The notes beneath the pieces are model-generated. The model had not been told where the DNA came from. It saw nothing but the letters and a program-made list of their open reading frames with translations, and searched no databases. From assembly GCA_005779435.1 (NCBI GenBank), contig SXJH01000225.1:1-36529 (forward strand): a stretch of 36,529 nucleotides of DNA, read 5' to 3'. This stretch comes from Nitrosomonas sp. (GTDB taxonomy: Bacteria; Pseudomonadota; Gammaproteobacteria; Burkholderiales; Nitrosomonadaceae). Shown one piece after another: positions 27,818 to 32,843 of the stretch. The position numbers were made by a program, and so were the translations under genes. How positions within the stretch are numbered: position 1 is the first letter of the stretch; the number at the start of each line of letters is the position of its first letter.

Positions 27818-27855
27818 CTTCTTAGCCCTGCCGCTTACCCGGGCAGGTTAGGTGT

Positions 27856-28067: not shown

Positions 28068-28106
28068 AAAAAAATAAGCCAGCGGGCAGTTAGGTAACCC
28101 GCTGGC
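28068..28106 (-). terminator. tR1-like intrinsic terminator
   Basis: GCCAGCGGG/CCCGCTGGC 9-bp stem followed by TTATTTTTTT. Confidence 0.75.
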
Positions 28107-28230
28107 ATTGAGTTGCAGCGGTGGCTGCTGGAAAATAGTTGCGACCATCCGATTACGCAAAAATGCGCTGGCCGCTGCGGCGGGAGAGTAACACGAAAAT
28201 CTGTGATCTGTTTTTGCTCCATTCTTAGCC

Positions 28231-28259
28231 CGGTTCATCCCCACGGGCGTGGGGAACAT
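28231..28259 (-). CRISPR. Solitary type I-E CRISPR repeat
   Basis: ATGTTCCCCACGCCCGTGGGGATGAACCG: 29 nt, CCCCAC/GTGGGG stem and ATGAACCG handle; no array or cas gene in window. Confidence 0.85.
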
Positions 28260-28283
28260 TTTATTAAACACAGCTTGTTATCT

Positions 28284-28526
28284 CTATGCGACTTGCTTTT
28301 CTTTATCTTGCTCTGCCAGTTCCGGCCATAGATCGCGCCAATTGGCTGGACAAAGATCGCGCCTTGTTACAATGCCATTTGTGGCCAATTCGATTTGCGG
28401 GCATCGCTCAAATGGTATCGGCCTTACTCCATTCCGCCATTGGCTTATTAACGAAGGGGAAACCCCCAGCTTTTCGGCCAGGCCCGCATTTGAATCAACT
28501 TCTGATAAGTATTTTTCTAAATTCAT
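28284..28526 (-). CDS. cro: Cro-like repressor (YdaS type)
   Basis: LAEKLGVSPSLISQWRNGVRPIP..RC..IELATNG.VTRRDLCP..W..LWPELA; probably leaderless from PR. Confidence 0.85.
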   Translation of the reverse strand: MNLEKYLSEVDSNAGLAEKLGVSPSLISQWRNGVRPIPFERCPQIELATNGIVTRRDLCPANWRDLWPELAEQDKEKQVA

Positions 28527-28532
28527 AACGTA

Positions 28533-28574
28533 ACGATAGCAAATGCTATCGATTGAGTCAATAGCAAATGCGAT
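28533..28574 (-). promoter_or_regulatory. PR-like promoter with two operators
   Basis: TTGACT-17-TATCGT; ATAGCAAATGCTAT at 28536-28549 and a variant at 28561-28574. Confidence 0.8.
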
Positions 28575-29095: not shown

Positions 29096-29239
29096 TCGAA
29101 TCTTCCACAAGTCTGGAAGATTCACTGGTTATTTTTCGTTCGAATCTTCCACAAGTCTGGAAAAGTCCCCCGTTATTTTTCGTGCGAGTTTTCCACAAGT
29201 CTGGAAAAGTCCCCCGTTATTTTTCGTGCGAGTTTTCCA
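29096..29239. repeat. 44-bp tandem repeat x3.3 with internal palindrome
   Basis: Units start at 29096, 29140, 29184, 29228; core TTCCA-CAAGTC-TGGAA. Confidence 0.9.
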
Positions 29240-29263: not shown

Positions 29264-29305
29264 ATAGCATTTGCTATTGACTCAATCGATAGCATTTGCT
29301 ATTGT
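29264..29305 (+). promoter_or_regulatory. PL-like promoter with two operators
   Basis: TTGACT-17-TATTGT; ATAGCATTTGCTAT at 29264-29277 and 29289-29302. Confidence 0.8.
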
Positions 29306-29373: not shown

Positions 29374-29754
29374 ATGAACATAGATGATTTAACGCTCGGG
29401 CAGATTAAGGAAATCCAAAACCTTGTTGGAGTAAAAAACAATGAAAACCAAGGATTAAACAGGATGATCGGCAGCAAGGTCATTATCAGAACATATTCAG
29501 CAGGAGTCTGGTTTGGAAAGCTGGCAGAAAAAAGCGGCAACGAGGTAATTCTTGAGGACGCACGCAGAATGTGGATTTGGTGGGCGAAGGAAGGAATTAG
29601 CCTCTCGTCTGTGGCAGTTAATGGCATTAACCAAGAAAAATCAAAAATAGCGGAAGCGGTGAAATCTGTTTGGTTGGAAGCCATAGAAATCATACCTTGC
29701 ACAGAAAATGCGATTTTATTAATTGAGAACGCACCAAATGCCAAGGCTGAATAA
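29374..29754 (+). CDS. Conserved phage protein (DUF6948-like)
   Basis: IGSKVIIRTYSAGVWFGKL..EVILEDARRMW.W motif; GGAG RBS. Confidence 0.75.
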   Translation: MNIDDLTLGQIKEIQNLVGVKNNENQGLNRMIGSKVIIRTYSAGVWFGKLAEKSGNEVILEDARRMWIWWAKEGISLSSVAVNGINQEKSKIAEAVKSVWLEAIEIIPCTENAILLIENAPNAKAE

Positions 29755-29971
29755 TTTTATTAATGTCGGCGACGGCGACGGCTACGGCGACGGCTCCGGC
29801 TACGGCTCCGGCTCCGGCTACGGCTCCGGCTCCGGCTCCGGCTACGGCGACGGCTCCAGCGACGGCTACGGCTCCGGCTACGGCTCCGGCGACGGCTCCG
29901 GCGACGGCTCCGGCTACGGCTCCGGCTACGGCTACGGCTACGGCTCCGGCTACGGCTCCGGCGACGGCTGA
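29738..29971 (+). CDS. Gly-Ser/Tyr/Asp low-complexity protein encoded by 6-bp GGCTMC/GGCGAC repeats
   Basis: (GSGYGDG)n; overlaps the end of the previous gene. Confidence 0.6.
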   Translation: MPRLNNFINVGDGDGYGDGSGYGSGSGYGSGSGSGYGDGSSDGYGSGYGSGDGSGDGSGYGSGYGYGYGSGYGSGDG

Positions 29972-30041
29972 AATGGGTACTCTTTAAGCTGTGACTCAAT
30001 GAATCCCGTGGAAGCCAGGAATTAATTGAAAGGAGAGACGA

Positions 30042-30191: not shown

Positions 30192-30295
30192 AAATCGACA
30201 TCGATTCAATCAGCTTGAGCATGGCGGCAATAATCGGCGCGTACCTGGTGGCGGGTATGTGTTGGGAACAAATTTTCAACCACTTCGGATTTTAA
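30188..30295 (+). CDS. Hypothetical 35-aa membrane peptide (not in ORF track)
   Basis: GAGGTG RBS, ATGA overlap; MKIDIDSISLSMAAIIGAYLVAGMCWEQIFNHFGF. Confidence 0.55.
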   Translation: MKIDIDSISLSMAAIIGAYLVAGMCWEQIFNHFGF

Positions 30296-30297
30296 AA

Positions 30298-30891
30298 ATG
30301 AATAAAACAGACTGGGAAATATTAGGGAAATTTGGCGTTACTCAGGAAAATCTGAGTGTGGGCGGCTCGCTTGATCTGAGGGGCTGCACCGGACTCACGG
30401 CGCTGCCTGATGGCTTGAGCGTTGGCGGCTCGCTTTATCTGAGGGGCTGCACCGGACTCACGGCGCTGCCGGATGGCTTGAGTGTGGGCGACTCGCTTGA
30501 TCTGAGGGGCTGCACCGGACTCACGGCGTTGCTGGATGGCTTAAGTGTGGGCGGCTGGCTTGATCTGAGCGGATGCACCGGACTCACGGCGTTGCCGGAT
30601 GGCTTAAGTGTGGGCGGTTCGCTTGATCTGAGCGGCTGCACCGGACTTACATCGTTGCCGGATGGCTTGAGTGTGGGCGACTCGCTTGATCTGAGGGGCT
30701 GCACCGGACTCACGGCGTTGCTGGATGGCTTAAGTGTGGGCGGCTGGCTTTATCTGAGCGGATGCACCGGACTCACGGCGTTGCCGGATGGCTTAAGTGT
30801 GGGCGGTTCGCTTGATCTGAGCGGCTACACCGGACTTACATCGTTGCCGGATGGCTTGAGTGTGAGCGGAACTATTTTTAAGGATTTTTGA
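30298..30891 (+). CDS. Leucine-rich-repeat protein (8 x 21 aa)
   Basis: LSVGGSLDLRGCTGLTALPDG repeated; 63-bp DNA units at 30352-30855. Confidence 0.85.
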   Translation: MNKTDWEILGKFGVTQENLSVGGSLDLRGCTGLTALPDGLSVGGSLYLRGCTGLTALPDGLSVGDSLDLRGCTGLTALLDGLSVGGWLDLSGCTGLTALPDGLSVGGSLDLSGCTGLTSLPDGLSVGDSLDLRGCTGLTALLDGLSVGGWLYLSGCTGLTALPDGLSVGGSLDLSGYTGLTSLPDGLSVSGTIFKDF

Positions 30892-30892
30892 A

Positions 30893-31867
30893 ATGAATGC
30901 AATTCTGAAAAATATCACGCAAGACAGGGCCAATTTTATTGGAGGTTCCGATACCGCTGCAATTTTGGGCGTATCACCTTGGAAATCGGCATTCCAGCTT
31001 TATCAGGAAAAAACTGGCGAATATCAGGAAGAAATCACGCCTGCCAAACAAAAGATATTTAATCGCGGAAAAAGATGGGAGCCAATCGTTATTGAAATGC
31101 TGGTCGATGAGCTTGAGGATCGTGGCCATGACGTGAAGATCATCACAAAAAACCAGCGTTATATCGATCCTGATTATGGTTTTTTGGCTGCCGAAATCGA
31201 TTTGGAATTGATGCTTGATGGACAGCACGTCAACGGCGAGATGAAAACCGTTCATCCGTTCGCTGCGAAAGACTGGGGCGAACAGGATACCGACGAAATC
31301 CCGCTGTATTACACATCGCAGGTTTTACACGGCCAAATGGTTACCGGACGCAATAAAACCATCGTTGCGGCTTTGATCGGTGCGGATGATCTGCGTGTGC
31401 ATGTGGTCGACCGTGACGATGAAATGATTGGCATCATTCGCAGCAAAGAAATTGAATTTTGGGAGCGCATACAAAACCGCGAAGCACCGGAACCAACAAC
31501 AACTGAAGATATTAATCGATTGTATCGATTCGATTCAGGCTCCGCTATCGAAGCTGATTCTGAGCTTCTCGAATTGATCGGAGAAGCATCAAACAAAAAA
31601 ACCGAATTAAAAGCCATCGAAACACGGCTGGAAAATTTGGTTACTCAAATCAAGTCAAGAATGGGCGAAGCGGCATTGTTGCTTCACAACGGCCAAAAGC
31701 TGGCAACGTGGAAAACCAACAAAGACAGCGAAAAGATTGACTGGAAGGGATTTGCTATCGAATTGATGTTGCGAACCAATGGCGCTATCAGCAAAGACAG
31801 CATCGAAGAAATGATGCGCAGATTTACGACTATTAAACTTGGCGCAAGACCTTTTTTAATTAAGTGA
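30893..31867 (+). CDS. YqaJ-like viral recombinase exonuclease
   Basis: IGGSDTAAILGVSPWKS, EMKT, IPLYYTSQV. Confidence 0.9.
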   Translation: MNAILKNITQDRANFIGGSDTAAILGVSPWKSAFQLYQEKTGEYQEEITPAKQKIFNRGKRWEPIVIEMLVDELEDRGHDVKIITKNQRYIDPDYGFLAAEIDLELMLDGQHVNGEMKTVHPFAAKDWGEQDTDEIPLYYTSQVLHGQMVTGRNKTIVAALIGADDLRVHVVDRDDEMIGIIRSKEIEFWERIQNREAPEPTTTEDINRLYRFDSGSAIEADSELLELIGEASNKKTELKAIETRLENLVTQIKSRMGEAALLLHNGQKLATWKTNKDSEKIDWKGFAIELMLRTNGAISKDSIEEMMRRFTTIKLGARPFLIK

Positions 31868-31877
31868 GGAAACAAAA

Positions 31878-32843
31878 ATGAGCGTAGCAAATTTAAAAGC
31901 AGCGGCAACAGGCAGCAACATGCCGGAAAAATTTTCGGACATGAGGCCGAAAGATCAAATAGCCCATTTGCTAAAAACGAAGCAAGCCGAAATATCCAAA
32001 ATGCTGCCGAAGCACTTAAACGCAGAACGATTGCTGAAAGTCGCTCAAATTGCGGCAACCACCACCCCGGCGCTGGCCAAGTGTGATGTTCCAAGCCTGA
32101 TTGGAGCAATCGGCCAATGCGCGCAAATGGGATTAGAACCGAATACAGTGCTTGGTCATGCGTACCTGCTGCCTTTCAACACGCGCCGCAAAGACGCCAA
32201 CGGCAACGAAAAGTGGGTGAATTCGGTGCAGGTAATCATTGGTTATAAGGGATTGATAGACCTTGCGCGACGTTCGGGCCAGATCATCAGCATTGCCGCA
32301 CACGAAGTTTGCGAAAACGACAAATTCGAACTTGTCTACGGTTTGGATGAAAAACTAAATCACACACCAGCAATGGGTGCGCGCGGAGAAGTGATTGGGT
32401 TTTATTCGGTAGCCAAGCTCAAAGATGGCGGCCACGCTTTCGAGTTCATGAGCAAGCTACAGGTAGAAGAAATCAAGGCTGCGAGTGAGAAAAAAAACAA
32501 GCGCGAATCATCGGTGTGGAAAGATCACTTCGTAGAAATGGGGCGTAAAACGGTGATCCGCAGGCTCGCTAAGTACCTGCCGCTATCGGTGGAATTTCAA
32601 ACGGCGGCGGCACTTGATGGCATGGCCGATGCAGGCAAAGATCAACATCTTGATGATATTGATGGCGATTATTCAATCATCCCTGAAGCAATTGATGCAG
32701 ATACCGGCGAAATCATCGATGGCGACGCTAACGAAACAAAGCCTGCCGATCCTCAGCCGGCGGCGAATCAGGCTAAACAGGAAGAAACCCCGGCGCCTGA
32801 AAAAAAGAAAGAATTAGATCCTGAATCGCTGGACATCGAATAA
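31878..32843 (+). CDS. recT: RecT single-strand annealing protein
   Basis: GLEPNTVLGHAYLLPF, IIGYKGLIDLARRSG, MGRKTVIRRLAKYLPLS. Confidence 0.93.
   Translation: MSVANLKAAATGSNMPEKFSDMRPKDQIAHLLKTKQAEISKMLPKHLNAERLLKVAQIAATTTPALAKCDVPSLIGAIGQCAQMGLEPNTVLGHAYLLPFNTRRKDANGNEKWVNSVQVIIGYKGLIDLARRSGQIISIAAHEVCENDKFELVYGLDEKLNHTPAMGARGEVIGFYSVAKLKDGGHAFEFMSKLQVEEIKAASEKKNKRESSVWKDHFVEMGRKTVIRRLAKYLPLSVEFQTAAALDGMADAGKDQHLDDIDGDYSIIPEAIDADTGEIIDGDANETKPADPQPAANQAKQEETPAPEKKKELDPESLDIE

Follow-up and report, generated by a model that had tools for sequence, protein, structure and literature searches.

Results

A lambdoid phage with a lone CRISPR repeat behind cro

The window, by which we mean the whole 36,529-nt stretch of DNA analysed here, is one contig of a 1.72-Mb, 67%-complete Nitrosomonas sp. 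assembly and encodes a lambdoid phage. Comparison of 54 ORFs of the window with PHROGs identified genes for terminase, portal, capsid, replication initiator, RusA, RecE/RecT-like proteins, and Cro. The cro-like repressor gene (28284–28526, minus strand; 80 aa) matches phrog_35 (E 2.6e-20), PF15943 and PF14549, and lies behind a PR-like promoter and operator (28533–28574, minus strand; promoter-like site 28561–28533) with a homologous counterpart in the relative L034. The operator is a 42-bp arm with an inverted second copy at 29264–29305. A RecE-like exonuclease and a RecT-like annealase (phrog_434 and phrog_148) are encoded at 30893–32843 on the plus strand and, from their family matches, constitute the candidate recombinase for the repeat capture proposed below.

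No tyrosine integrase (PF00589) was found on the phage contig, and queries with the L034 cI and cII proteins gave no match in the 67%-complete assembly. Joined, the contig ends (36509–36529 and 1–30) read as the 3′ portion of the tRNA-His of the genus, lacking 2 nt. This sequence appears to be an att core, and the contig would thus be a complete circular phage or else a prophage cut at att. The phage is likely temperate-derived, having lost int, cI and cII. Its segment 28615–29262 lies in the 690 bp between the operators, where L034 carries cI and 3.8 kb of cargo; it contains a 94-aa excisionase-like ORF (28924–28640), whose nearest named Atlas clusters (excisionase/HTH_17, 0.84–0.85) are a lead only, and about 3.5 copies of a 44-bp repeat (29097–29239). 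The early leftward operon includes a 210-aa protein of 22-residue leucine-rich repeats (30259–30891, plus strand) and a Gly/Ser/Tyr-rich low-complexity ORF (29723–29987, plus strand), both candidates for counter-defence. An Rfam sRNA-Xcc1 match (79.6 bits; 27505–27418, minus strand) falls within a 194-aa ORF that has no family match and sits downstream of a 10/12 promoter-like site (27620–27591).

As the original prediction had it, a 29-nt type I-E repeat lies at 28259–28231 (minus strand), 24 nt past the cro stop (28284) in the sense of cro and within the predicted earliest transcript. Its hairpin and 8-nt 5′ handle (28238–28231) are intact. The repeat is host-like, with 28 of 29 nt identical to array repeats of the same genus: the 28 3′ bases are those of the arrays of genomes G018, G104, G090 and G132. 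G018 has 38 exact array copies adjoining cas3, cse1, cse2, cas7, cas5, cas6e, cas1 and cas2, and G104 has 68 copies. The sole mismatch is the first base, an A in the phage vs a G in the matching arrays (G or C among genus arrays). The host lineage does contain I-E systems, with a Cse1 gene in 18 of 120 genus genomes. The window carries no cas genes, as had been noted, and the 67%-complete assembly has no Cas6e family match.

The locus is a solitary repeat unit (SRU). By the SRUFinder criteria, the repeat fully matches a known CRISPR repeat (28/29 nt, arrays of G018 and G104), stands alone, with no second copy exceeding 70% closer than 100 bp (each flank has a local score of 0.48), and is intergenic in a mobile element without cas genes; in the whole 1.72-Mb, 67%-complete assembly it is the only copy within 6 mismatches. 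The repeat region holds two overlapping ORFs of 83–90 aa, neither with a family match. Stray I-E repeats also occur on genus chromosomes: a two-repeat mini-array in G020 (L032:10153-10065), a single repeat behind a toxin–antitoxin-like gene pair near an array of another type in G005 (L033:10261), and a duplicated leader with one repeat in G018 (L031:18332).

The second repeat-like sequence is native to the phage

A degenerate second repeat had been proposed further downstream, and this claim did not hold. The ungapped alignment to the repeat has 14/29 identities, a score reached by 36% of random 130-nt windows of the phage, and the spacing would be 36 nt, vs 32 nt in 288 of 307 genus spacers and 33 nt, which also occurs. 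Moreover, the sequence is part of a structured element (28139–28185, minus strand) conserved behind cII in three repeat-free genus prophages and not CRISPR-derived. The hairpin element directly follows cII in these prophages (L321, L322 and L340), has no Rfam match and is possibly an antitermination or regulatory RNA. Bases 28192–28191 differ from all relatives compared and make the 5 nt at 28194–28190 equal to the usual start of the repeat, a likeness that may be accidental or may reflect drift in the direction of a second repeat. The predicted terminator at 28106–28068 (minus strand) is present as a native, intrinsic terminator-like 10-bp hairpin and U-run, its hairpin common to repeat-less relatives; the 9-nt loop is above the loop limit of one terminator scan, which hence did not list it.

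Both flanks of the repeat resemble protospacer positions

Exactly 32 nt before the repeat stands an AAG (28292–28294, minus strand), which would be the PAM of a putative upstream protospacer, S_a (28260–28291, minus strand). S_a is native phage DNA, composed of the cro end and a post-cro motif common to the phage and L034. The PAM published for this exact repeat is AAn (extract of PMC8482600). AAG has a frequency of 0.015 across the window and 0.05 locally. The gene order in L034 is cro, the same post-cro motif and then cII (phrog_101, E 3.7e-17), and the comparison points to this as the ancestral order. Among the relatives found, none joins S_a to cII. A leader captured together with the repeat, to which a likeness of this flank to an IHF site had pointed, is rejected, the upstream DNA being unlike genus leaders and shared with L034.

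The downstream flank, S_b (28199–28230, minus strand), is the 32-nt predicted guide. The original prediction had treated 28230–28195 as a pseudo-spacer; the DNA is instead native phage sequence carried by repeat-less relatives, and S_b holds the last codon and stop (28227–28225) of a deleted gene. Contigs of runs X3, X5 and X6, from three studies, share 28139–28231 without the repeat and diverge exactly behind 28231. At their loose ends AAG directly precedes S_b, and the last G of the repeat occupies the position of the G of this AAG. The relatives, which are kin rather than independent, are known from short contig pieces, and the evidence for the downstream junction consists of loose ends 30 letters long. 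Hand translation of these ends in the reading frame set by the stop yields one basic C-terminus with synonymous differences, which resembles cII ends in the genus, and the gene ending at S_b in the repeat-less relatives is likely cII. In X5 and in X6, one contig apiece differs at 3 positions of 28173–28231, two of which are 28191–28192, leaving at most 1 mismatch in S_b; two further contigs are more distant (8/59 and 9/93 positions differ). Close relatives in IMG/VR and JGI (27 of 64 JGI parts scanned) were limited to L034 (69% Cro) and distant Cro genes, and GenBank phages gave weak matches only (E 0.2 or worse).

By comparison, about 0.5 kb with cII is missing at the repeat and the AAG before S_b is replaced by the CCG of the repeat. 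The L034 gene order and the flank comparison together indicate that the repeat has taken the place of this DNA, with both joins at spacer-style positions. The unit would therefore read protospacer–repeat–protospacer.

AAG at −32 recurs in other viral solitary I-E repeats

In viral contigs a scan detected 114 loci; 26 were solitary (24 unique), and the other 88, which were arrays, mini-arrays and edge cases, were left out. AAG is located exactly 32 nt upstream in 13 of the 24 unique solitary repeats vs 8 of 528 at 22 other offsets (p 3e-14). GTDB contigs yielded 85 loci (six offsets allowed), and in the 21 solitary ones 11 of 22 AAG hits are at −32 (p 3e-4), three of the 11 cases showing a partial second repeat; array loci there have no clear AAG peak (18 at −32, 17 at −33). 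Almost all of the GTDB cases, and 12 of the 13 viral ones, come from metagenome assemblies, in which a phage-to-array shortcut would mimic the signature; some may be chimeric. The identifier of one case, L204, reads as that of an isolate; no relatives were found across its junction for a second two-sided comparison. Open frames of at least 270 nt are present on the left and right at 4 and 5 of the 12 AAG-32 loci with full flanks, vs 66% and 73% of control points, and this avoidance of open frames gives weak support to real events. One 52-kb viral contig carries two separate solitary I-E repeats (L131 and L230), both with AAG at −32, and each recurs in a second assembly (L193 and L224). A literature search at record level returned no report that viral solitary repeats have a PAM one spacer length upstream.

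S_b has good predicted targets in repeat-less relatives, with none found at cas promoters

The original prediction had Cascade redirected either to a rival element or to a cas promoter. The first option is strengthened, as repeat-less relatives carry S_b behind AAG and are the only good S_b targets found. The second is not. Across 18 I-E loci of the genus (297 kb, some of them truncated at contig ends; the true host strain not among them), none of 28 seed matches is flanked by AAG, ATG, AGG or GAG, and the own assembly (67% complete) likewise has no seed match with any of these. A search of 189 family genomes that tolerated up to 3 mismatches over 24 nt detected no host array with S_a or S_b, its one match being in a coding region, and both are absent from the 307 genus spacers. 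A weak likeness of spacer 27 of G018 to S_b is likely chance. A spacer motif shared with L037 is rejected as chance: a gapped scan gave three loci, L037 itself and two matches inside a portal gene.

Discussion

Origin of the repeat

The data argue, with good confidence on our part, that the repeat is the scar of a recombination with a host array, in which a spacer–repeat–spacer piece moved into the phage. The host would have held spacer S_b, Cas3 would have degraded upstream of its PAM, and priming would have taken S_a from the same strand. During I-E priming in E. coli, AAG accompanies more than 90% of new spacers, Cas3 moves away from the PAM, and plasmid-derived spacers come mostly from the non-target strand (extract of PMC8179228). 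The RecET proteins of the phage may then have repaired the Cas3 gap on the S_a–repeat–S_b array piece. New spacers enter an array at its leader end, so that the array would read S_a–repeat–S_b, the order seen in the phage. An alternative template, a Cas1–Cas2 half-site with its PAM end still untrimmed, would give the same product; trimming of the PAM after half-integration is described in an extract of PMC10284694. The exchange would turn the AAG before S_b into CCG and hide the S_b site from the host CRISPR system, as CCG allows neither interference nor priming in E. coli (extract of PMC6568314). Loss of cII presumably cost little, since cI and the integrase were also not found on the contig.

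Several observations stand against a scar that now serves as a guide. No host array with S_a or S_b turned up among the 189 family genomes, and no relative found joins S_a to cII. S_a keeps its AAG, which would leave the phage open to attack by a host that carries spacer S_a; the retained AAG would be harmless if that spacer existed only in the cell that was lysed. In addition, the first repeat base is an A where genus arrays have G or C.

The same signature is exactly what a phage-to-array shortcut would yield if the assembler had stepped out of the phage at one protospacer, passed through the repeat of a host array and re-entered at the next protospacer. X1 and X2, probably the source runs, do contain deep arrays with this repeat (summed depths of 1,900 and about 6,000), and this sharing explains why no contig spans the repeat with 31 nt on each side. 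The flanking contigs, by contrast, enter the repeat with no branch and at the depth of the phage (154 and 162 in X1, 25 and 36 in X2), the independent study X3 has both junctions with 0 differences at depths of 3.1 and 3.4, like the rest of the phage, and a repeat borrowed from genus arrays would not account for the first base. We consider a chimera unlikely, indeed very unlikely.

Present function of the unit

Given a scar origin, an active guide is somewhat the more probable present role, and the two together, a scar that has become a sibling-targeting guide, we hold to be evenly poised. The model is that host Cas6e would cut the cro transcript to release an RNA in which the 8-nt handle and S_b are followed by a tail that reaches to the terminator (about 130 nt), and that this predicted guide would load Cascade and target AAG–S_b in repeat-less relatives. 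S_b is weakly structured in the predicted fold. The lack of a second repeat in the predicted RNA, and thus its tail of about 130 nt, counts against this model; the 3′ handle is, however, dispensable for target recognition in vitro (extract of PMC4499155), and a I-E Cracr with a 40-nt tail has been observed (extract of 10.1101/2024.10.29.618823). Relatives with 8/59 and 9/93 differences may escape such a guide.

It is somewhat unlikely that the scar is neutral, with PAM loss as a one-time benefit and an RNA that now lacks relevant effect. All evidence on origin applies equally to this reading, the unit has been seen in one phage lineage only, it has neither second repeat nor leader and is one base off the array repeats, Cse1 is present in only 18 of 120 genus genomes, and no Cas6e was found in the own 67%-complete assembly. 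The intact hairpin and 5′ handle, the position inside the predicted earliest transcript, and the near-perfect AAG-flanked targets in abundant relatives (depth 77 in X6) speak against neutrality. That the unit acts mainly as an RNA anti-CRISPR (Racr) is distinctly unlikely. Here Cas6e would remain bound to the hairpin that ends the cro message, Cas7 would coat the handle-less upstream RNA, and host crRNAs would lose these proteins. The locus does agree with the published description of SRUs, early and strong transcription is predicted, and, in an extract of PMC10651486, RacrIE1 and RacrIE2 inhibit the P. aeruginosa I-E system and RacrIF1 acts via a product without 5′ handle. Yet the upstream RNA is the translated cro message, dedicated promoters do not exceed chance (5 found, 3.8 expected), no anti-CRISPR family was found among the 54 window ORFs in PHROGs (a weak test), and the flank geometry is explicable without selection for a decoy. 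Some titration of Cas proteins is possible as a side effect of a guide, as the upstream cleavage piece with its hairpin may titrate Cas6e or Cas7 and, by analogy, resembles the handle-less RacrIF1 product.

Hardly credible, finally, is a Cracr- or CreR-like role in which a partially matching guide would make Cascade repress a cas or toxin promoter, or the phage site 27827–27813. I-E Cracrs exist (extract of 10.1101/2024.10.29.618823), and the phage segment 27827–27813 (minus strand), which lies behind CAG, agrees with 13 of the first 15 nt of the guide. This CAG is, however, outside the AAn PAM of the repeat (extract of PMC8482600). In the 18 genus I-E loci the longest seed-match run falls inside cse1, and S_b is native phage DNA rather than a copy of a host CreR; no CreR- or CreA-like match to S_b was found in the 189 family genomes, a search limited to 3 mismatches or fewer in 24 nt. 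The match at 27827–27813 to the guide start may be a native repeated motif.

Relation to known systems

The SRUs and Racrs of Camara-Wilpert et al. 2023 (extract of PMC10651486) likewise have one host-like repeat in an intergenic position of phages without cas genes, and the repeat sequence of our phage appears once in the SRU table of that paper, in another virus (L039). Unlike the units described in that extract, both flanks here map to the phage's own PAM-defined protospacer positions, with a gene deleted between them, and unlike the handle-less RNA of RacrIF1, the predicted downstream RNA has a canonical handle and near-perfect targets in relatives.

Viral mini-arrays (Medvedeva et al. 2019, extract of PMC6858448; Faure et al. 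2019, as described there) also combine a host-identical repeat with a guide against close relatives near the same locus and protection from self-targeting. Here, too, the spacer equivalent matches PAM-bearing related viruses and not the carrier: one contig each in X5 and X6, both partial, has at most 1 mismatch and AAG, and the carrier has CCG. Mini-array spacers are placed between two repeats, or a repeat and a truncated repeat, whereas the second repeat here is at chance level and native; the leader of archaeal cases has no counterpart, the upstream DNA being shared with L034. In contrast to the mini-arrays in the extract, the phage has one repeat, no leader and, as its "spacer", its own protospacer left in place. 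An active guide would make the unit work like a mini-array. For phage units that lack a leader, recombination with host arrays has already been proposed (extracts of PMC6858448, PMC11656645 and PMC8616872).

Cracr RNAs (Liu et al., extract of 10.1101/2024.10.29.618823) share the layout of repeat, spacer-like stretch and terminator, include I-E examples and can have long 3′ tails. The Cracrs in that extract have partial PAM-flanked matches to cas or creT promoters; no such match was found in the 18 genus I-E loci, and the guide here is phage-native. Spacer–protospacer recombination (Watson 2018 and Varble 2019, as cited in an extract of PMC8616872) likewise proceeds via spacer homology during CRISPR escape. 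Those cases moved CRISPR loci by transduction, while the present case has one repeat and a deletion fixed in the genome of a replicating phage. To these precedents the locus adds junctions on both sides of the repeat, an AAG at −32 that recurs upstream of many viral repeats, and the cII deletion.

The locus bears on how phages acquire lone CRISPR repeats. We put forward, tentatively and somewhat short of an even chance, that about half of viral solitary I-E repeats are spacer–repeat–spacer escape scars, each of which would delete the DNA between two primed protospacers and turn an old target into a guide against unconverted siblings, and that Racrs and mini-arrays start in this way; in the present phage, which is also without cI and integrase, the event would have removed cII. 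The AAG-32 signature is a one-line test applicable to any SRU catalogue and would sort Racr candidates into scars, sibling-targeting guides and assembly chimeras, and the scar reading predicts a recombination product that laboratory work could seek. The locus would also link CRISPR escape with the loss of a lysogeny gene.
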